A DNA stretch of 41,268 nt from Streptosporangiaceae bacterium (lineage in GTDB: Bacteria > Actinomycetota > Actinomycetes > Streptosporangiales > Streptosporangiaceae): positions 1-41,268 of the forward strand of contig DASYXX010000833.1 of NCBI GenBank assembly GCA_035934395.1, read 5' to 3'. Below the pieces are notes generated by a model. The model did not search any database. It was not told the origin of the DNA and was given only the letters and a program-made list of their open reading frames with translations. The translations under genes were made by a program, and so were the position numbers. Positions 2 through 7,306 of the stretch are shown here, piece after piece. The stretch's first letter is position 1. Every line of letters begins with the position of its first letter.

Positions 2-925
2 GCGCCCGGTGGCTATACGGCCATCTACAAGGGCTGCCACTGGGGTGCGTGCACGCGCGGCAGCGGCTTGCCGATCCGGGTACAGGACATCCGCGCTCGC
101 AGGGTCACCACGAGCTGGAGCACGTCCCAGCCTGGCGGCAGCAACGCTTATGACGTGGCCTATGACATCTGGTTCAACCAGACCCCCAATGCCAGCGGCC
201 AGCCCGACGGCACCGAGCTGATGATCTGGCTGAACCACAACGGCCCGGTGCAGCCGTTCGGCGCCAAGGTCGCCAGCAACGTCAGCGTCGGCGGCCGCCG
301 CTACGACGTGTGGTTCGGCAGGCAGGCCTGGAATACCGTCTCCTACACGATGACCAGCGGCACCACCTCGGTCCGCAACCTGGACGTCGGCGCGGTGACC
401 GCGGACGCTGTCGAGCGCGGCTACATCCAGAAGTCGTGGTACCTCATTGACGTCGAGGCTGGCTTCGAACTGTGGCAGGGCGGCGCCGGCCTGGCGACCA
501 AATCCTTCTCCGTCAACCTCAACGGCCGCAGCCCAAGCCCCAGGCCGGCCCCTAGGCCAAGGCCCACGCCGGCCCCCAAGCCCGCCCCGTCGCCGGCACC
601 GGCCCCCACCATCTCCCTGCAGGCCATCTCGCCCGACCCGACGACACCGGGAACCGCGACGAACATCACGGTGGACTTCAGCAACACCGGCCCGGCCATG
701 GCCGCCAACCGGACCCTGATCATCGAAATCCGCAGCTCAGCGGGCACCGTCGTGGGCTCCCGGTCATGGCCGGGGCAAAACCTCGCGCCGCGGCAGACCC
801 TGAACAAGACCTTCACCTGGACGGCCGCCTCGCCGACCGGCACCTACACCATCGAAGGACTCGTGCAGAACTCCTCCGGGAAAACGCTCCAGCATGCGCA
901 GGCGGCAACCATCACCGTGAAGTGA
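2..925 (+). CDS. Glycoside hydrolase family 12 endo-beta-1,4-glucanase, 5'-truncated by the window edge. Catalytic domain, Pro-rich linker (527-610) and a C-terminal beta-sandwich-like domain of about 100 aa.
   Basis: The frame is open from nt 2 (APGGYTAIYKGCHWGACTRGSGLPIRV...), so the listed TTG at 68 is internal. GH12 hallmarks are 'DGTELMIWL' (Glu codon at 215-217) and 'IDVEAGFELW'. A PxP linker 'SPSPRPAPRPRPTPAPKPAPSPAPAP' follows, then 'TATNITVDFSNTG...GTYTIEGLV'. Confidence 0.85.
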   Translation, partial: APGGYTAIYKGCHWGACTRGSGLPIRVQDIRARRVTTSWSTSQPGGSNAYDVAYDIWFNQTPNASGQPDGTELMIWLNHNGPVQPFGAKVASNVSVGGRRYDVWFGRQAWNTVSYTMTSGTTSVRNLDVGAVTADAVERGYIQKSWYLIDVEAGFELWQGGAGLATKSFSVNLNGRSPSPRPAPRPRPTPAPKPAPSPAPAPTISLQAISPDPTTPGTATNITVDFSNTGPAMAANRTLIIEIRSSAGTVVGSRSWPGQNLAPRQTLNKTFTWTAASPTGTYTIEGLVQNSSGKTLQHAQAATITVK

Positions 926-1492
926 AGCCAAGCACGGATAGCAGACCAGACGCAGAGGCCCAGCCCGGCGGCTGGCGGGCCGCCACGGCGAACCCAGCCC
1001 GGCGGCTGGCGGCGGCGCCATGCGGCCTGCCGCCGCGGCACGCCCCCGCAGGCCTGCCAGCCTCTGGGTCCCGCGACGGCATGCGGCTAGCCAGGGCCGG
1101 CCGACACCAGGACCCTACGAGCGTCTGACCCGCCGGGCCAGTGGCGCATACGACAGGCTTGCTACCGTTTGCGTCATGCACGCTGGGTTGCTCGCCAGCG
1201 ACGGATGCGTCAGCTCGGGGTTGACCGAGCAGGGCCGCCGCGGGGGACCATCCTGGCCCCGTGTGGCACGACCCTCCTCAGTAGCGCCCGACCTGCGCCA
1301 CCCTCGTCCGTCGCCGGTTCACGGCGGCCCGGCCCGAGGCATGCGCCGGGCGGCCTCTGGCCGGGTAGCGCTGCGCTAACGCCGCCGCGCTAGCCGAGCG
1401 TTACCGGTCTCCGGCAGGTTCTTCTCGCCGGTGTCCACCTCGGTTGGCGCGTGTGATCCCCGCGGCTGACCCATGTCCCTGAAGGAGAGTTC

Positions 1493-1855
1493 GTGACACA
1501 ACGCCGTATCAGGCCTCAGCAAGGCCCGGCCACGGCCGCGGCGGCGAGCGTTATCCGGACTGAGCCTGACCGCCGAAAGACTACGAGGCTAGATTTTCTC
1601 AGCGATTCTGAGAAGTGTCGTCCGGTCAGCTTCACCGACCGCGAGACGTCCATCATCTGCCTGATCGCGGCCGGACTTACGAACGCGCAGGTGGCATGGA
1701 GACTTTGCATCAGCCACCACACGGTTGCCCAGCACGTGGCCGAGATGCTGCGTCGGTCCAGCGCCCGAAATCGCTGCGAACTCGTGGCCCGTGCCTATGC
1801 CGTCGGCTCCCTCCGAACTGGTGTCTGGCCCCCGCGCCACTCCAACGAGTACTGA
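1493..1855 (+). CDS. LuxR/GerE-family helix-turn-helix transcriptional regulator (small, no receiver domain)
   Basis: C-terminal 'FTDRETSIICLIAAGLTNAQVAWRLCISHHTVAQHVAEMLRRSSARNRCELVARAY' matches the GerE HTH pattern. GTG start is preceded by GAAGGAGAG. Confidence 0.8.
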   Translation: MTQRRIRPQQGPATAAAASVIRTEPDRRKTTRLDFLSDSEKCRPVSFTDRETSIICLIAAGLTNAQVAWRLCISHHTVAQHVAEMLRRSSARNRCELVARAYAVGSLRTGVWPPRHSNEY

Positions 1856-2126
1856 CCCCTGTTGCGCTGGTTGTACGACACGATATTGCCTCAGTTAGCC
1901 ATTCCAGCGCGCGCCGCGCCGGAACCGGGCCTAGTTGTGGTGTCTGTTTGGCCTGCGGTGGCGGTTGCACGGTGGTGCCCGGGTGCGCACCGGCTCCGGC
2001 CGCGCCGGGCTGTGCCTCTTTTCGTTTCGCTGAGGTGGTCCGTACTGGTCAGGCGGGTGGGGCGCAGGGCGCAGAGCCGCTGCCAGCAGGTCAGGGCGAC
2101 CAGGCTGACGAGCGTCTTCGCAGATG

Positions 2127-2921
2127 TCAGGCGATGCGGTCGAGCATGCGCACCAGCGCCTCGGCGCCCCTGGCCCGGTCGGCCGCGGGGGCCAGGCCGC
2201 CGCTTCCTTCTGCCTCGACGATCTCCGCGTCCCTGGCTCGCCTGGCGATCGCCTCCCCGTAAGACCGGTTGCGGGGCAGCACCACTGCCGTCACCGGAAT
2301 GGCGAGTTCCCCGAGGCGATCGATCCACGGCGACACAAGCCACGGCGGGTCCGGCTGCGGGCGCCTCTCGTCGGCCGCCGCCTTGATGGCCCGCAGGTCT
2401 GCGAAATACTCCTGAGCGTGATCGCTGTATATGGCGACGCCAAGCTCGAGTTCGGCCGGGTCGATGTCCCGCGCCGCGTCGCGCAGGAGTGCCGCGAACA
2501 TCTCTCGCTGCCGCTCAGGGTCGTCCTCGACGAGGGCTGTGTCAGCAAACGGCTGATAGACGTTCGCCAGATCGTCTGTCAGCCTGTCCAGGTCATCGGC
2601 TGTGATGTTAATGTCGACGTCGTCAGGGATGCTGTCAATAGACGGCTGGAAGAACACCACGCCCTTCGCCAGTCCGGCCTCCGCGAGGGCAAATGCGAAC
2701 CGGGCGGCTTGGCCTGCCGCAACCACGATGTCAAAGCCGCTGTTACCAGCGAGGCGCCGCGCCGTGTCCAGGAAGTCGCCATTAACCGACGACCAGGGCA
2801 CTTGTTCGTGCTGGTCGTAGTGAATCACAAGGGCGCGGCCTTGAAGGCGTTCAGGAATGTCATGCCACAATCGATAGTCCGTATACTGATCAGGAATGAA
2901 GAGAACTCTCGGGGAATTCAT
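2127..2921 (-). CDS. alpha/beta-hydrolase-fold-like protein without a recognisable nucleophile serine (probable pseudoenzyme or orphan)
   Basis: The N-terminal layout 'RVLFIPDQYTDYRLW...ALVIHYD...FDIVVAAGQAARFAFALAEAGLAKGVVFFQP' mirrors beta-strand / HG-like / nucleophile-elbow / helix C of alpha/beta hydrolases. The elbow reads AAGQAA and has no Ser. Many A/T-ending codons. Confidence 0.5.
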   Translation of the reverse strand: MNSPRVLFIPDQYTDYRLWHDIPERLQGRALVIHYDQHEQVPWSSVNGDFLDTARRLAGNSGFDIVVAAGQAARFAFALAEAGLAKGVVFFQPSIDSIPDDVDINITADDLDRLTDDLANVYQPFADTALVEDDPERQREMFAALLRDAARDIDPAELELGVAIYSDHAQEYFADLRAIKAAADERRPQPDPPWLVSPWIDRLGELAIPVTAVVLPRNRSYGEAIARRARDAEIVEAEGSGGLAPAADRARGAEALVRMLDRIA

Positions 2922-2999
2922 TTGATTATTCTAGCACCAGGAGAGCCACGATGTCGAGCTTCACGGCTTAGGCCGATTGACGCTGAGCCTGCATGAATT

Positions 3000-3968
3000 C
3001 TACGGCTTCCCGAAGGCGTCCTTGGCGCACCTGACCGCATACGGGCCAGCGCAGACTCCGCACTTCACACAGTTGACGTATGAGGGCAAGCCACCATGCT
3101 GGCCGCAGCTAATGCAGGCCTGCGCACAGTCTGAGTTTGTGTGCCTAATGATGCAATCGATAAATAGGATCAGTTGCGCCGCCGAGGGAGCGTCCGGGCC
3201 ATTGGGCCCGCTGGGAGCGGGGCTTACCCGCACGCGATCTCCTGACACCGTGACGTCGGCCAGCGGAACTCCGCCCACGGTGTGATATCTGAGCGTGCCC
3301 CCGGCATCGGGCAGCACGCCCATGCTCAGGGCGACAGGCCTGTTCCGCAGCGCCCCAGGCGAGCTGTCGACGAAGGTGAGAATCCCCTGCTGAGGGTGAC
3401 TCAGGGCAAGCACGCTCTGCCCGCCACCGTTAGCGATATAGGCGGTATCCTCGACCGGTCCCCAGGTACGTATGGCTTGCTGGACCGAGGCGGCCCCCAG
3501 CGCCGCCCTGACGTGTGCCGGATCAGCGGGCGTCAGACCGGTTGGCTCATCTCCTCGGCGGAGCGGATCGACTGCCGAGCCTGACACGACAGCCCAGCCG
3601 ACCACGCCGGCGATCGCGCTGCCGATCACCCCTCGGCGAGACGGGGCATGCGGCTGCGCCGACGTTGCCAGCCGCGCCCGGTACTCGGCCGCGAGCAGGC
3701 GGATGATTGCACCCGAACGGCGCCATCCCACGAGAGCAGCGAGGCGCCTGCGCATTCCCCATCCACTGAGCACACGCAGGTCGTCCTCGTCGACGACCAT
3801 TAAGGAGGGACGGCCTGGGATCGGCAGCCCTGACTTGCTCAGCAGCGCTGAAACCTCTGGGTCGTCCAGCGGACTGGCCTCGAGGCCGGGTATCGAGAGA
3901 TCGCGGACCATCCTGGCGACGTTGGAACACGGGCGGCAGCTGTGCTGGAAGAGAACGATGTATCTCAT
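3000..3968 (-). CDS. Orphan single-pass membrane protein. N-terminal CxxC thioredoxin/DCC-like domain, internal twin-arginine-like motif plus TM helix, unknown domain, and a C-terminal 8-Cys module.
   Basis: Preferred start is ATG at 3968 ('MRYIVLFQHSCRPCSNVARMV'), preceded by GGAG. The listed start at 4013 would add 15 aa. 'PSRRGVIGSAIAGVVGWAVVSGSA' is the internal RR motif plus hydrophobic segment. The tail is C-x8-C-x3-C-x2-C-x11-C-x2-C-x2-C-x7-C. Confidence 0.6.
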   Translation of the reverse strand: MRYIVLFQHSCRPCSNVARMVRDLSIPGLEASPLDDPEVSALLSKSGLPIPGRPSLMVVDEDDLRVLSGWGMRRRLAALVGWRRSGAIIRLLAAEYRARLATSAQPHAPSRRGVIGSAIAGVVGWAVVSGSAVDPLRRGDEPTGLTPADPAHVRAALGAASVQQAIRTWGPVEDTAYIANGGGQSVLALSHPQQGILTFVDSSPGALRNRPVALSMGVLPDAGGTLRYHTVGGVPLADVTVSGDRVRVSPAPSGPNGPDAPSAAQLILFIDCIIRHTNSDCAQACISCGQHGGLPSYVNCVKCGVCAGPYAVRCAKDAFGKP

Positions 3969-4142
3969 GGAGGTCTCCGTGTCGTCTAGGCCGACTCTCA
4001 AGGCACGTCGCAATGCACGCCGGACCGCTGCCCAGAGGCATGCTCTGTGCTCTTCAGCACGCGAAGAGCCTGCGCTCGCGCCCCTGGTGGCGCACCTCCC
4101 TGCATGGCCAGGGCTGCCATTACTGTGACACCTGACATACGG

Positions 4143-4287
4143 GGGGAGTAATCCCTAAATCTTCTAGACTTGATGGATACAGGGCGAGTTCTCGCAGGTG
4201 GTGATGGTGCGTCCGCCGGAGGTGTCCGTCCGCCCGGCCTCGAGGTCACGCCCCGACTCAGAAGTACGCGATTTAGGGATACTCCCC
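4143..4287. repeat. ~19-bp inverted repeat pair flanking a 108-bp spacer in a divergent intergenic region
   Basis: GGGGAGTAATCCCTAAATC (4143-4161) versus GATTTAGGGATACTCCCC (4270-4287). The arms are complementary except for one missing T. Confidence 0.7.
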
Positions 4288-4346
4288 GCGCCGATCAGGC
4301 GAGATGCTGGCTGGCTATGAGGCCCACCGCGCCTAGGAGGTTCCCC

Positions 4347-4865
4347 ATGACAATTCGACGACGGTCCGTCATCCTCGCCACGGCGGCCGCGGCGGCCGCG
4401 GCGGCGGGGGCTGTGATGGCTCTGGGCGCCGCCCTGGCCGCACCGGCTCCCTCATCGGCCGAAGCCCTGACTGCGGCCCGGAGCTCGGCCCAGCAGACGG
4501 CCGCGCCCGTAACGATAACCCCGGCACCGATAACGGATGCGCCAAACCCGCCTACCGGCCCTCCTGTGCAGAGGGTGAAAATCGCGGGTGATTACCTGGA
4601 GTGCTTTACCCCGGGAGCCATCCTCTTCGTGACCCAGAACAATATCCACATCAGGGAGCTGCCGAATGGCGCAAACATAGCCCCAATCAACAGGGGGGCG
4701 TGGTTTGACAGCAGCGTGTTCATCAACGGCAAGGGCCCGTACCACTGCATGACGAGCCAGTATACGGCCAGAACACTGTGGGTATTTGGCTTCGCAAACC
4801 ACAACCACAAACTCATCGGCTACGTCGGTTTTAACTGGCTCAACTTCCGTAGCTACCTTAAGTAA
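4347..4865 (+). CDS. Small secreted protein of unknown function. Signal peptide, Pro/Thr-rich spacer, and a C-terminal domain of about 100 aa with an SH3b-like segment.
   Basis: ATG at 4347 is preceded by TAGGAGG with a 6-nt spacer. 'MTIRRRSVILATAAAAAAAAGAVMALGAALAAPAPS' is signal-like. 'FVTQNNIHIRELPNGANIAPINRGAWF' resembles the bacterial SH3 core. There are two Cys. The listed start at 4170 is an unlikely 5' extension. Confidence 0.65.
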   Translation: MTIRRRSVILATAAAAAAAAGAVMALGAALAAPAPSSAEALTAARSSAQQTAAPVTITPAPITDAPNPPTGPPVQRVKIAGDYLECFTPGAILFVTQNNIHIRELPNGANIAPINRGAWFDSSVFINGKGPYHCMTSQYTARTLWVFGFANHNHKLIGYVGFNWLNFRSYLK

Positions 4866-5072
4866 CTCCGTTTATCCTCAATCGTTCAGGTGCCTTGAGG
4901 TGCGGTTACTGGTGGCTGGGGGAGGAAGCGACGGCGCCGCAGCGCAGGTCAGGAACCCCTCGCATTGTGGATCAGCTTGGCCTCCACCATCGATGACCAA
5001 ACGTGTCGCGTCGGCCTCCCCGCAGGACAGGCCCGCCTCGCGCGGCAGCATGCCGCACGTGGCTAACCACGA

Positions 5073-5513
5073 CTAGGCCTCCGAGGTTGACCGTCCGGGG
5101 TCGCAGTGGGGCGGATCGCCGACGGCGCCGAGGGCGCGAGCCAGTCCGTGGTAGCGGTCGGCCTGGTCCCAGTCGGCGTTGCACGGATCGCAGAGCGAAT
5201 CTGCGCAGCGTGGGCACGGCCGGTCTTGATGCTGGCGCCAGGCGATAGCGTCGGCGAGGGCCTGTGAGAGCAGCCCGGTTGGCGGGTCCATGGGTGGCAA
5301 GTCGGTGGCCAGGAGCGCGGTGAGAGCCTGCTGGAAGCGACCGATGAGGTACCGGGGGTCGGTCTCGAGCGCGGTGACCGTGTCCGACCCGACAGTGGCC
5401 GCGCCGACTGCCTCGGCTAGCTGCGGACTGGCCGGCCATGTCCGGTCGAGAAGGGCCAGGGCCACTGACACCGCGCCGTCGCGGCGGGGCGGGGTGCGTG
5501 AAGTGTCGGTCAT
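5073..5513 (-). CDS. Hypothetical protein with a CxxC...CxxC motif, translationally coupled to the upstream HATPase gene
   Basis: ATGA stop/start overlap at 5510-5513. The motif is 'DRPCPRCADSLCDPCNADW'. No family recognised. Confidence 0.55.
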   Translation of the reverse strand: MTDTSRTPPRRDGAVSVALALLDRTWPASPQLAEAVGAATVGSDTVTALETDPRYLIGRFQQALTALLATDLPPMDPPTGLLSQALADAIAWRQHQDRPCPRCADSLCDPCNADWDQADRYHGLARALGAVGDPPHCDPGRSTSEA

Positions 5514-6019
5514 AGATAGTCCTCTCGCCGATTGGCCCGGCCCGGGCCTGAGTCGGGGCTGTCCGTGCGGTGATCTCGACTACTGGCCAGCCCCCACACC
5601 ACCTTGCCGCCCGCCGTCCGGTACGCGCCCCAGTCCTCGGCGAGCGTGTCTACCAGCAGCAGGCCGCGGCCGCACTCGGAATCCGGCCCCGCGTCCCGTC
5701 GCACGGGCATCTGGCTGCTGCCGTCCCATACGTGAATGACCACGCAGCGGCCGTCCGAGACCAGCCGCAGCCGGACTGTCGGCGACGTCAGGCCTGCCGA
5801 CGCGCGGACGGCGTTCGTCGTTAATTCCGAGACGAGCAATTCCGTGGTGTCCGCGAGTTCCGCCAGGCCCCATTCGATGACCACCTGCCTGGCGTGCATC
5901 CGGGCGCACGGCACCGCCGTGGGCAGGGCGCCCAGCTCGAGGTGGCTCTGGAACGGCCACTCACGGGCACTGGAACGTTGCCCGGGCGCCGATCTCACCG
6001 CGAAGGGAACGCCGCTCAT
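5510..6019 (-). CDS. HATPase_c-type ATP-binding protein (RsbW/SpoIIAB-like anti-sigma-factor/serine kinase fold; AbaA-cluster type)
   Basis: N-box-like 'ELLVSELTTNAVRAS' and G-box-like 'CGRGLLLVDTLAEDWG'. Size is about 170 aa. It is divergent from an XRE/DUF397 pair, as in WhiJ-type loci. Confidence 0.75.
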   Translation of the reverse strand: MSGVPFAVRSAPGQRSSAREWPFQSHLELGALPTAVPCARMHARQVVIEWGLAELADTTELLVSELTTNAVRASAGLTSPTVRLRLVSDGRCVVIHVWDGSSQMPVRRDAGPDSECGRGLLLVDTLAEDWGAYRTAGGKVVWGLASSRDHRTDSPDSGPGRANRREDYL

Positions 6020-6056
6020 GAGTCAGAGTCAATCACTCCGATGAACCAATCTGCAA

Positions 6057-6135
6057 GCTTTCATAATGAAGTATCGACAATCAGAGCCCGATGAGGTAAA
6101 ACCATTGCGAAGCGTGCGTGGAGATGCTTTCATAA
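6057..6135. promoter_or_regulatory. Two copies of GCTTTCATAA, 69 bp apart, in the AT-rich divergent HATPase/XRE promoter region (candidate operator half-sites)
   Basis: 6057-6066 and 6126-6135 are identical 10-mers. Each is followed by (T/C)G. Confidence 0.3.
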
Positions 6136-6173
6136 CGGGTGAGAGCAGTCCTCGCTCAGGAAGAAGGCGAGCG

Positions 6174-7061
6174 ATGACCGAGCAGACGACGGGCTCGACG
6201 GTGCCGCGCCGGCAGTTGGGCCGCTACTTACGAGATCTCCGTAACGCCCAGCGCCTGACCGTCCGGGCGGCCGCGGAGCGGCTGGAGTGGTCGGAGGCCA
6301 AGATCTGGCGCATCGAGACCGGCCAGGTCGGCCTGCGCAGCCTGGACGTGGAGGCGATGTGCCGGATCTACGGCGCGGCGCCCGACCTGACCGAGGCCCT
6401 CATGGGCCTGGCCAAGGAGACAAAGGCCAAGGGCTGGTGGCACTCCTACGGCGACGTCATCCCCGAGGGCTTCGACGTCTACATCGGCCTCGAAGAGGCC
6501 GCGGCCAGCTTCTCCTGGTACGAATCGGAACTCGTGCCAGGCCTGCTGCAAACCGAGGGCTACGCCCGCGCGGTCATAGCAGCCGACAAACCCGGAGTTG
6601 AAGAAGAAGAAATAGATCGTCGCGTCCACGTCAGGATCGCGCGGCAGGCTCTACTGACCCGAGTGACTGCCGCCCCAGAGCTGCGCATCGTGCTCAATGA
6701 GGCCATCGTCAGACGGCCCGTGGGCGGTGCGATGGTCATGGCGGCCCAGCTCCGGCGGCTACTGGACGCCAGTAACCTTCCGAACGTGGCGCTGCGCATC
6801 ATGCCGTTCAGCGCTGGGCTGCATCTCGGGGTAATGTCCGGGCCGTTCGAGATCCTGCGCTTCCCGCTGAACGGAGACGGCCGGGCGAGCGAGCCGCCCA
6901 CGGTCTACGTGGATGGCTTCACGGGCGACCTGTACCTGGACAAGCCGAAGGAGATTCAGCGCTACGACGAGGCGTTCCAATCGATATGGTCGGCCGCCCT
7001 GAGCGAAGGGGCGTCGCAGGATCTGCTGAACCGAGCCTCGAAGGAGATACCGTTATGTTGA
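6174..7061 (+). CDS. XRE-family HTH regulator with a C-terminal DUF5753-like domain (WhiJ-like / Scr1-type antitoxin-like regulator)
   Basis: 'LGRYLRDLRNAQRLTVRAAAERLEWSEAKIWRIETGQ' is an XRE HTH. The long C-terminal domain ('WWHSYGDVIPEGF...YIGLEEAA...') is typical of this family. ATG at 6174 follows AGGAAGAAGG. The listed start at 6066 lies in AT-rich intergenic DNA. Confidence 0.8.
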   Translation: MTEQTTGSTVPRRQLGRYLRDLRNAQRLTVRAAAERLEWSEAKIWRIETGQVGLRSLDVEAMCRIYGAAPDLTEALMGLAKETKAKGWWHSYGDVIPEGFDVYIGLEEAAASFSWYESELVPGLLQTEGYARAVIAADKPGVEEEEIDRRVHVRIARQALLTRVTAAPELRIVLNEAIVRRPVGGAMVMAAQLRRLLDASNLPNVALRIMPFSAGLHLGVMSGPFEILRFPLNGDGRASEPPTVYVDGFTGDLYLDKPKEIQRYDEAFQSIWSAALSEGASQDLLNRASKEIPLC

Positions 7062-7306
7062 CCCAGGAATGGCGCAAGAGTTCTTACAGCAACAGCAGCT
7101 CTAACTGCGTCGAGGTCGCGGGCGCGTGGCACAAGAGCAGCCACAGCAACAGCAACTCTAACTGCGTGGAGGTCCGGGCCGGCCAGCCCGATGCGGTGGC
7201 CGTGCGGGACTCCAAGGACCGCGGCGGGCCGGAGCTGGGCTTCACCGCCGGCGCGTGGGCGGCGTTCGTGCGGGGTGTCAAGCAGGGCGAGTTCGACCTG
7301 GCGTGA
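7055..7306 (+). CDS. DUF397 (BldB-like) domain protein with a duplicated N-terminal motif
   Basis: 'WRKSSYSNSSSNCVEVAG' and 'WHKSSHSNSNSNCVEVRAG' are followed by 'AVAVRDSKDRGGPELGFTAGAWAAFVRGVKQGEF'. The ATG at 7055 lies 7 nt inside the 3' end of the upstream XRE gene (stop 7059-7061). Confidence 0.85.
   Translation: MLTQEWRKSSYSNSSSNCVEVAGAWHKSSHSNSNSNCVEVRAGQPDAVAVRDSKDRGGPELGFTAGAWAAFVRGVKQGEFDLA
7070..7174 (+). repeat. In-frame 57-bp-period tandem duplication inside the DUF397 gene
   Basis: 7070-7117 'TGGCGCAAGAGTTCTTACAGCAACAGCAGCTCTAACTGCGTCGAGGTC' versus 7127-7174 'TGGCACAAGAGCAGCCACAGCAACAGCAACTCTAACTGCGTGGAGGTC'. Confidence 0.85.

Follow-up and report, generated by a model that had tools for sequence, protein, structure and literature searches.

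The gene described here lies on the minus strand of a 41,268-nucleotide stretch of DNA from a Streptosporangiaceae bacterium (Actinomycetota; contig DASYXX010000833.1 of GenBank assembly GCA_035934395.1), which is referred to below, at its full length, as the window. The open reading frame (ORF) at positions 3000 to 3968 begins with an ATG at position 3968, ends with a stop codon at positions 3000 to 3002, and encodes a protein of 322 amino acid residues (aa). As judged from its sequence and predicted structure, this protein very probably consists of a cytoplasmic head with a CxxC motif, an internal signal of the twin-arginine translocation (Tat) type, and an exported part that ends in a hairpin carrying a ladder of disulfides. 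It represents an uncharacterized, widespread actinobacterial family in which a thioredoxin-like CxxC domain is followed by a Tat signal and then by a Cys-rich exported part. A preliminary description of this DNA, made from the sequence alone and giving no strand, had quoted three features, the CxxC motif, the internal twin-arginine motif, and a Cys-rich tail, and all three are found in the 322-aa protein, including the exact spacing of the cysteines. Their conservation among diverse relatives shows that they did not arise by chance.

A Shine-Dalgarno-like GGAG can be read from the sequence at positions 3975 to 3978 (minus strand), 6 nt 5' of the ATG, and the start Met is shared by most homologues in the alignment. 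A longer ORF that would start from a TTG at position 4013 was rejected, as nearly all homologues begin with MRY or MKY and the GGAG precedes the ATG at 3968.

The protein was previously taken for an orphan, which it is not: a homology search returned 70 full-length homologues of about 300 to 360 aa, with 39 to 99% identity and mostly 93 to 100% query coverage. A profile search against 1.84 billion cluster representatives (clusters at 50% identity) found 614 clusters at an E value of ≤1e-3, 190 of them at ≤1e-10; almost all are 300 to 350 aa long, match the target from end to end, and show the same layout. A close relative is encoded in only 4 of the 185,579 species-representative genomes, and all four loci come from metagenome-assembled genomes (MAGs). 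The named sources of the family are Streptosporangiaceae, Rugosimonospora, and MAGs of unclassified Actinomycetota, and the family is known mostly from soil metagenomes. Shorter relatives of the head are found in Rubrobacter naiadicus, Thermoflexus hugenholtzii, and one Chloroflexi MAG.

Scans against Pfam, NCBIfam, and PADLOC assigned no family to the target, to the partner gene downstream of it, or to the gene upstream of it, and PDB sequence searches with the whole protein and with a profile of its N-terminal domain returned just noise or weak thioredoxins. No description of this architecture turned up in the literature on DCC/DUF393 proteins in connection with Tat, on internal or N-terminally extended Tat signals, or on cytoplasmic disulfides formed prior to Tat transport. 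Thus, the earlier statement that no described family has this architecture holds for Pfam, NCBIfam, PDB sequences, and the literature searched. In what follows, residue conservation is counted in an alignment of 110 diverse relatives and the statistics of the signal motif refer to 159 family members; the AlphaFold2 (AF2) model of the target was built on an alignment of 27 sequences.

The CxxC head and the internal twin-arginine signal

The N-terminal domain (residues 1 to 104; positions 3657 to 3968, minus strand) is modeled by AF2 with a predicted local distance difference test score (pLDDT) of about 90 and has the topology β-α-β-α-β-β-α (β1, 2-7; α1, 16-24; β2, 29-33; α2, 37-45; β3, 55-59; β4, 64-68; α3, 69-80), followed by a long Arg-rich helix at residues 82 to 103. 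The sequence MRYIVLFQHSCRPCSNVARMV is present in the target and holds C11 and C14 after the first β-strand. They form the active-site-like motif C11-R-P-C14 (positions 3927 to 3938, minus strand) at the β1/α1 junction, and each of these cysteines, the only ones within residues 1 to 271, is present in 108 of the 110 relatives. P54 (positions 3807 to 3809, minus strand), a candidate cis-proline that stands right before the predicted strand 55-59 (β3), the place of the cis-Pro in thioredoxin folds, is invariant (110/110), as is G69. A second conserved motif, G-x-R-R at residues 81 to 84 (positions 3717 to 3728, minus strand; G81 in 109, R83 in 87, and R84 in 77 of the 110 relatives), opens the long helix, which is amphipathic and leads up to the Tat signal.

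In Foldseek searches of PDB and BFVD, the head matched only thioredoxin, glutaredoxin, PDI, and KaiB folds, at weak E values of 4e-3 to 0.07. The DCC1-like family (Pfam ID PF04134, DUF393, COG3011; YuxK of Bacillus subtilis) is the sole Pfam family to recur among the relatives, with matches in 26 of 110 at E ≤ 0.1. Wherever coordinates were displayed, these alignments begin at profile position 1 in the right register, and the best of them scores 24.3 bits (E = 7.8e-5), against a gathering score of 27.8. The head resembles DCC1-like proteins in being an N-terminal thioredoxin-like domain of about 100 aa and in that the majority of the family (85 of 110 relatives) has the DCC motif D-x-x-C-x-x-C[S/T], with Asp at position -3, right after β1. 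However, the target has Gln in place of the name-giving Asp (Q8-H-S-C11), and in the Pfam scan it does not match PF04134 even at E ≤ 1. Naming based on COGs at the JGI labels several relatives as “DCC family thiol-disulfide oxidoreductase YuxK.” A profile search with the N-terminal domain retrieved 47 short relatives, none of which carries a precomputed PF04134 label, and the JGI calls some of these DCC/YuxK as well. The preliminary description had proposed a thioredoxin-fold, DCC-like head, and AF2, Foldseek, and the sub-threshold PF04134 matches agree with it. Judged by sequence and model, the head is a CxxC domain of the thioredoxin fold, remotely related to the DCC1-like domains but, by curated criteria, outside their family. 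We know of no DCC protein described as a fusion to a signal peptide and exported cargo.

The head is followed by a segment, PSRRGVIGSAIAGVVGWAVVSGSA, that spans residues P109 to A132 (positions 3573 to 3644, minus strand) and is marked as an internal twin-arginine signal peptide by its sequence logo, its hydrophobicity, a peak of AxA motifs, and the conservation of the Arg pair. In the target, the motif reads S110-R111-R112-G-V-I, and an uncharged, Gly/Ala-rich segment of 20 residues (113 to 132) follows the Arg pair; R111 is present in 109 and R112 in 102 of the 110 relatives. Among the 159 family members, the logo shows Ser or Thr at position -1 (117 members), the two Arg residues (157 and 154 members), and then x, V/L/F, L/I, G, and G. 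The uncharged run after the Arg pair has a median length of 23 residues and is weakly hydrophobic, with a median of 1.51 for the best Kyte-Doolittle mean over 19 residues. An AxA motif lies 23 to 29 residues past the first Arg in 135 of 159 members, versus 27 of 159 in a downstream control window. The c-region of the target, G130-S-A132, is the probable signal peptidase site, a tolerable small-x-small rather than a canonical AxA. Some distant members carry textbook Tat motifs (SRRDFLKKG, TRRRLLKGAG, and PRRRFLTHTG), and the Pfam TAT_signal model gives sub-threshold matches in 4 of the 110 relatives. There is also a subclade with a single Arg, SR[G/A/S]xFLKG (P0140, P0192, P0196, P0201, P0360, and P0366), which has kept the FLK part and lost the second Arg, and one relative, P0087, that is devoid of a hydrophobic signal segment.

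These properties match those of canonical Tat signals (PF10518, TIGR01409), namely S/T-R-R-x-Φ-Φ, a weakly hydrophobic h-region rich in Gly, Ala, Ser, and Thr, and an AxA c-region about 25 residues past the Arg pair. However, canonical signals are N-terminal, whereas in this family a folded soluble domain comes first: about 105 to 108 soluble residues precede the motif, so that the signal is not at the extreme N terminus. By its sequence, the segment resembles a cleavable Tat signal in everything save its position. The earlier reading of an internal Tat signal is supported by the family logo, the hydrophobicity, and the AxA statistics. The net charge of residues 69 to 112, Arg pair included, has a median of +8, and the net charge after the hydrophobic segment is 0. 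This charge on the N-terminal side predicts an N-in, C-out orientation, and together these sequence features strongly indicate a cytoplasmic head and export of the C-terminal 190 residues. Residues 105 to 142 are modeled as non-helical with a pLDDT of <50, a low confidence that is more typical of a signal peptide than of a membrane helix. The stretch that follows the predicted cleavage site (residues 133 to 144; positions 3537 to 3572, minus strand), with a pLDDT of <50 and variable in the alignment, is best described as a linker.

The preliminary description had compared this arrangement to the dual Sec/Tat insertion of the actinobacterial Rieske protein. Dual-targeted proteins include Rieske QcrA/Sco2149, Sco3746, polyferredoxins, and the YkuE family (PMC5449189, PMC3471235), and the known families have 2 to 4 Sec-inserted transmembrane domains ahead of the internal twin-arginine motif (PMC5449189). 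They resemble the target in that a weakly hydrophobic last segment comes immediately after the motif and in that the exported domain is folded. However, these proteins have upstream Sec helices and exported domains that bind cofactors, whereas the target has a soluble upstream part and cysteines of a disulfide-like pattern. Residues 1 to 108 contain no hydrophobic segment and no transmembrane helix, either in the sequence or in the AF2 model, where they form the soluble thioredoxin-like domain. With nothing hydrophobic upstream of the Arg pair, the Rieske analogy fails, and no Sec step would be needed.

The predicted exported domain and its Cys ladder

The exported part comprises two modules. 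An α/β domain of two helices and seven strands (residues 145 to 260; positions 3189 to 3536, minus strand) is modeled with a pLDDT of about 90; it has no match in PDB sequences or Pfam and none among the listed Foldseek hits from PDB and BFVD. It is followed by a C-terminal helical hairpin (residues 261 to 322; positions 3003 to 3188, minus strand), which likewise has no match among the listed Foldseek hits from the same two databases. Its confidently modeled helices (residues 263 to 276, 279 to 289, and 294 to 319) carry all eight tail cysteines, at positions 272, 281, 285, 288, 300, 303, 306, and 314, within the last 51 residues of the protein. Each of the eight is conserved in 86 to 95% of the relatives, which supports the earlier proposal of a Cys-rich domain beyond the signal. 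Most relatives have ten tail cysteines, the extra two of which align with L268 and A318 of the target; the mature parts mostly contain 8 or 10 cysteines, all within the last 75 residues.

Pairing of the cysteines was analyzed by the presence or absence of each Cys column over the 110 sequences, using the Fisher test without phylogenetic correction. The best partners of the individual columns make up a perfectly nested set of five pairs: 268-318 (p = 3e-8), 272-314 (p = 3e-6), 281-306 (p = 1e-6), 285-303 (p = 6e-6), and 288-300 (p = 2e-12). All ten cysteines are present in 71 sequences. Seven sequences are missing only 288 and 300; four, the target included, are missing only 268 and 318 (plus two more with an alignment slip); three are missing only 281 and 306; and two are missing only 272 and 314. 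Two further sequences are missing 272 and 314 together with 285 and 303. Along the two arms of the hairpin, the cysteines are spaced 3/3, 3/4, 8/9, and 4/4, which puts them in register for antiparallel helices.

The pairs are lost independently of each other, unlike the ligands of Cys4 zinc sites or Fe-S clusters, which is the reason for assigning them as disulfides. For the target, the bonds C272-C314, C281-C306, C285-C303, and C288-C300 are strongly indicated by this covariation and by the model, and the tail fits a helical hairpin stapled by a nested disulfide ladder. A reading of the tail as metal- or Fe-S-like, prompted by its CxxCxxC...C spacing, found no support: the cysteines sit on confidently predicted helices and are gained and lost as five nested pairs rather than as quartets. 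For example, the quartet 285/288/300/303 has lost 288 and 300 alone in the 7 sequences that keep 285 and 303. The tail does not contain the ferredoxin signature CxxCxxCxxxCP, its motif being C-x2-C-x2-C-A-G-P on a helix, and in the alignment of relatives none of the potential co-ligands His, Met, and Asp is conserved there. The paired losses led us to reject all readings of the tail as an Fe-S, Zn(Cys)4, or copper-store module.

Nested Cys pairs that hold antiparallel helices together, at i/i+3-4 and i/i+8-9 distances, are also known from plant α-hairpinins, the CHCH twin-Cx9C fold, and saposin-like folds. However, those hairpins have two or three rungs, whereas the family described here is bacterial and Tat-targeted, has four to five rungs, and carries an attached β-rich domain; neither sequence nor Foldseek similarity links the target hairpin to any of them.

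The partner gene and the wider neighborhood

The gene that lies 78 bp downstream of the target, in the same direction (positions 2127 to 2921, minus strand), encodes a 264-aa protein with an α/β-hydrolase fold, a cap domain, and no signal peptide. Its AF2 model (pLDDT 88) gives 252 Foldseek matches in PDB at E ≤ 1e-3, which include dehalogenases, HOD, MenH, and RsbQ with E values of about 2e-7. With the catalytic positions assigned by eye from the secondary structure of the model, Ser, Asp, and His are all absent from the canonical triad: behind strand 65-69, where a nucleophile elbow would read G-x-Nu-x-G, the sequence is A-G-Q71-A-A, and there is no His past the last strand (232-236). Judged by sequence and model, this partner is probably non-catalytic. 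It shares the α/β-hydrolase core and helical cap with RsbQ and the KAI2/D14 receptors (Foldseek E values of about 1e-6 to 1e-7), as well as the genetic link to regulators. However, RsbQ and KAI2 are active hydrolases, whereas the partner has no triad, has Gln71 at the nucleophile elbow, and matches nothing in Pfam. Its own family, with more than 140 members and no Pfam model, keeps an invariant D100, D134, D167-H168, and E171.

Of the 9 loci fetched, 7 have a homologue of the partner as the next gene downstream of the target homologue, with the two genes overlapping in locus L001, and a comparison of the two homologue lists found 14 target and partner pairs on contigs of equal size. In locus L015, an ORF truncated by the contig end, with an N terminus that looks partner-like by eye, follows a target relative of 31% identity. 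An obligate pairing is made less likely by partner family members that occur without a target-like neighbor (L016 and L017) and by distant target relatives without a partner (L010 and L014). In the 78-bp gap there is a sigma-70-like match (positions 2928 to 2957, minus strand; TCGACA-18-TAGAAT with a TG extension, 10/12), the only one in positions 1400 to 5000, where 0.3 would be expected. By this match, the partner may have a promoter of its own.

Beyond the partner, and convergent with the operon, a small helix-turn-helix (HTH) regulator of the GerE/LuxR type (Pfam ID PF00196, E = 4.8e-12) is encoded at positions 1493 to 1855 of the plus strand. Genes of this type flank the target and partner pair in L003 to L005 and are present in about half of the loci. 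The target probably forms one module with the partner and the GerE regulators. In Rubrobacter naiadicus (locus L018, positions 1678 to 5583), a HisKA_3 kinase and a GerE response regulator are followed by a head-plus-signal protein of 191 aa with a Cys-free 45-aa tail and by an Abhydrolase_6 protein that has Glu at the nucleophile position and neither a catalytic Ser nor His. The gene order of the window thus recurs at class-level distance. Homology of the R. naiadicus hydrolase to the partner could not be demonstrated (BLASTP E = 0.16; hhalign probability, 4%), and the two have in common the fold class and the missing triad.

Upstream of the target, a divergent gene (positions 4347 to 4865, plus strand) encodes a small secreted protein of 172 aa with an RRR-containing signal and no Pfam match. 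A linker rich in Ala and Pro joins the signal to a conserved C-terminal domain, which is about 100 aa long and has two cysteines. Searches with tblastn found its homologues in the same divergent position in L003 (6949-7314), L006 (5158-5628), and L008 (5132-5704), the last with a tandem AAPVA repeat in the linker. A second, unrelated secreted protein of 127 to 139 aa, with four cysteines in the motif FCNGNYLCV...YCATAW...GY.C and no Pfam match, is encoded by a co-directional gene immediately ahead of the target homologue in L001 (7618-8001), L002 (1043-1426), and L009 (1766-2185); its stop overlaps the start of the target homologue in L001 and L002.

Farther away, the window holds a WhiJ-type trio typical of actinomycetes (positions 5510 to 7306), which consists of an HATPase_c_2 gene (5510 to 6019, minus strand), an HTH_31+DUF5753 regulator (6066 to 7061, plus strand), and an overlapping gene with two copies of DUF397 (6986 to 7306, plus strand). 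Positions 68 to 925 (plus strand) encode a secreted protein in which a Pro-rich linker connects a glycoside hydrolase family 12 domain to a weakly matched CARDB-like one; its Pfam match begins at profile position 57, so the N terminus has apparently been cut by the start of the window. The G+C content, locally 0.65 to 0.75, dips to about 0.56 at positions 2600 to 3200, which cover the coding region of the Cys hairpin and the 5' end of the partner gene, and at positions 4600 to 5000, which cover the 3' end of the gene for the 172-aa secreted protein.

Proposed redox folding before export and its alternatives

The principal argument for linking the CxxC head to the cysteines of the exported part is that the combination of this head with Cys-rich cargo recurs. 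Unrelated but likewise Cys-rich exported modules are found in relatives whose similarity to the target is confined to the head and the signal, such as P0185 (18 cysteines), P0210 and P0213 (rich in CxC and CC), and P0200, P0201, P0172, and P0198. In P0347, the entire cargo amounts to a peptide of some 58 aa, with 14 cysteines, that directly follows an AxA-type site. Tat transports folded proteins. It rejects a single-chain variable fragment (scFv) that depends on disulfides unless the CyDisCo system makes these disulfides in the cytoplasm (PMC6708511), and on account of both properties the most plausible role of the head would be to act on the cysteines of its own cargo.

The best overall reading, which we hold with somewhat less than even confidence, is that the gene encodes the precursor of an envelope or secreted protein with a disulfide ladder, exported by Tat, and that the CxxC domain works on it in cis prior to export. 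In this scheme, the exported part would fold in the cytoplasm, as Tat requires, while the tethered CxxC domain would form, check, or hold the thiols or disulfides of the cargo, so that only the correctly paired module would pass Tat proofreading. Signal peptidase would then free the mature protein of about 190 aa, leaving the head with the signal remnant. Taken by itself, the redox step in cis, i.e., action of the tethered head on the Cys ladder before transport, is a tentative proposal about which we are more doubtful than confident. The closest parallel is the engineered combination of CyDisCo and Tat in Escherichia coli (PMC6350376, PMC6708511), in which cytoplasmic disulfides likewise enable passage of Tat proofreading. 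However, CyDisCo is artificial, works in trans, and needs the sulfhydryl oxidase Erv1p, whereas the catalyst proposed here would belong to the same polypeptide as its cargo, with no oxidase evident. A fuller version, which we consider rather unlikely, is a natural, self-contained device for folding before export, in which the head would install or proofread the ladder, remain behind or be set free on signal peptidase cleavage, and then perhaps report export to the pseudo-hydrolase and GerE partners. If true, it would be the first natural counterpart of CyDisCo plus Tat and a new class of N-terminally extended Tat precursor.

Several points weigh against the reading that we favor. In the reducing cytoplasm of actinobacteria, nothing evident would oxidize the CxxC head, and the disulfides could equally form after export through extracytoplasmic systems of the DsbA or VKOR type. 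P0359 (R. naiadicus) and P0339 combine the head and signal with short Cys-free tails, and therefore service to Cys-rich cargo cannot be the only role of the head. The displayed PF04134 scores are all under the gathering threshold, and the target itself has no Asp in its version of the DCC motif. Finally, the Cys covariation ignores phylogeny, and the most distant tails cannot be aligned with certainty.

The main alternative, though somewhat improbable, is that the protein is a bitopic type II sensor, anchored by an uncleaved twin-arginine segment, with the Cys-ladder ectodomain sensing the redox state of the envelope or a ligand and the head and partner signaling to GerE/LuxR; in a variant, cleavage and proteolysis of the remnant would release the head as an export-coupled signal. 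The recurrent pseudo-hydrolase downstream (7 of the 9 loci, plus the truncated ORF in L015), RsbQ and KAI2 receptors among its structural matches, and GerE regulators nearby in the window and in L003 to L005 are consistent with such a role. In R. naiadicus the order is the same with an ectodomain of only about 45 aa, which would reduce the conserved core to the head and membrane segment, and the best 19-residue hydrophobicity, about 1.5 to 1.6, is borderline for a membrane anchor. However, cleavage at the position where AxA is enriched (135/159 versus 27/159) would sever the sensor from the head, AF2 gives a non-helical segment of low confidence instead of a transmembrane helix, and no known signaling domain is present; moreover, GerE genes occur in only about half of the loci, and partner relatives in L016 and L017 have no target-like neighbor. 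The same partner could instead be passenger to a Tat escort, the target carrying this signal-less protein, or a small neighboring one, across the membrane as a folded complex, in the manner of the Tat hitchhiker pairs MelC1/MelC2 and HybO/HybC. The tight co-directional pair (overlapping in L001, 78 bp apart in the window), the well-folded globular partner without a signal peptide, and the use of Tat, which itself implies pre-folded export, would suit this scenario. We nevertheless regard it as quite improbable, given that partner relatives also occur alone, that L010 and L014 have no partner, that the partner possibly has a separate promoter, and that the CxxC head and Cys ladder would be left unexplained.

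A secreted membrane-active or antimicrobial effector, with a laddered hairpin like those of α-hairpinins and saposin-like proteins and an N-terminal domain of the pro- or immunity type that keeps it inactive or reduced, would account for the nested disulfides, for the small and very Cys-rich peptide that is the whole cargo of P0347, and for the small secreted proteins among the neighbors. The patchy distribution (4 of 185,579 species representatives) and a distant relative next to transposases would also fit. However, no similarity to toxin or bacteriocin families was found in Pfam, NCBIfam, PADLOC, or Foldseek searches, there is no dedicated immunity or transporter gene, and the hairpin is attached to a β-rich domain of 115 residues, which makes an effector a poor candidate. 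The model put forward in the preliminary description, a metal- or Fe-S-loaded Cys tail exported by Tat and acting in a transmembrane thiol or electron relay, now appears barely tenable, as does its variant of a Csp1-like Cu(I) store. In its favor, cofactor-loaded proteins usually travel by Tat, the tail does have the C-x2-C-x2-C spacing, and Cys-lined helices bind Cu(I) in Csp proteins, Csp1 being a Tat-exported helix bundle. However, Cys4 metal or cluster sites cannot be squared with the independent loss of nested pairs, the motif is on long confident helices without CxxCxxCxxxCP, the tail has none of the conserved His, Met, or Asp co-ligands, and cleavage at AxA would part the two halves. 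A relay also finds no support in the membrane segment: DsbD, CcdA, and VKOR have a multi-helix membrane core with redox-active cysteines or a quinone site, whereas the target has a single Gly/Ala-rich segment (residues 113 to 132) that contains neither Cys nor a cofactor site and cannot conduct electrons or thiol exchange from one side to the other.

An N-terminal signal is the defining mark of Tat substrates, and the only internal Tat motifs known to us come after Sec-inserted membrane helices. Each module of the protein described here (a thioredoxin/DCC-like domain, a Tat signal, and a disulfide-stapled helical hairpin) is of a known kind; what the libraries and literature searched do not describe is their combination, with a soluble, folded redox domain placed ahead of a Tat signal and coupled to Cys-rich cargo. 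This layout suggests redox control of folding that is built into a Tat substrate. Independent of the mechanism, the family, with hundreds of clusters in Actinomycetota and some relatives with Chloroflexota source labels, provides a domain architecture and an exported fold that are both new, together with a predicted disulfide-ladder hairpin of four or five rungs whose connectivity is explicit. If the head does act on its cargo, as in the reading we favor, this would reconcile the pre-folded cargo of Tat with disulfide-dependent folds in a reducing cytoplasm and give the poorly understood DCC/DUF393 superfamily a concrete substrate, and a compact fusion tag for Tat export of disulfide-rich proteins could follow.

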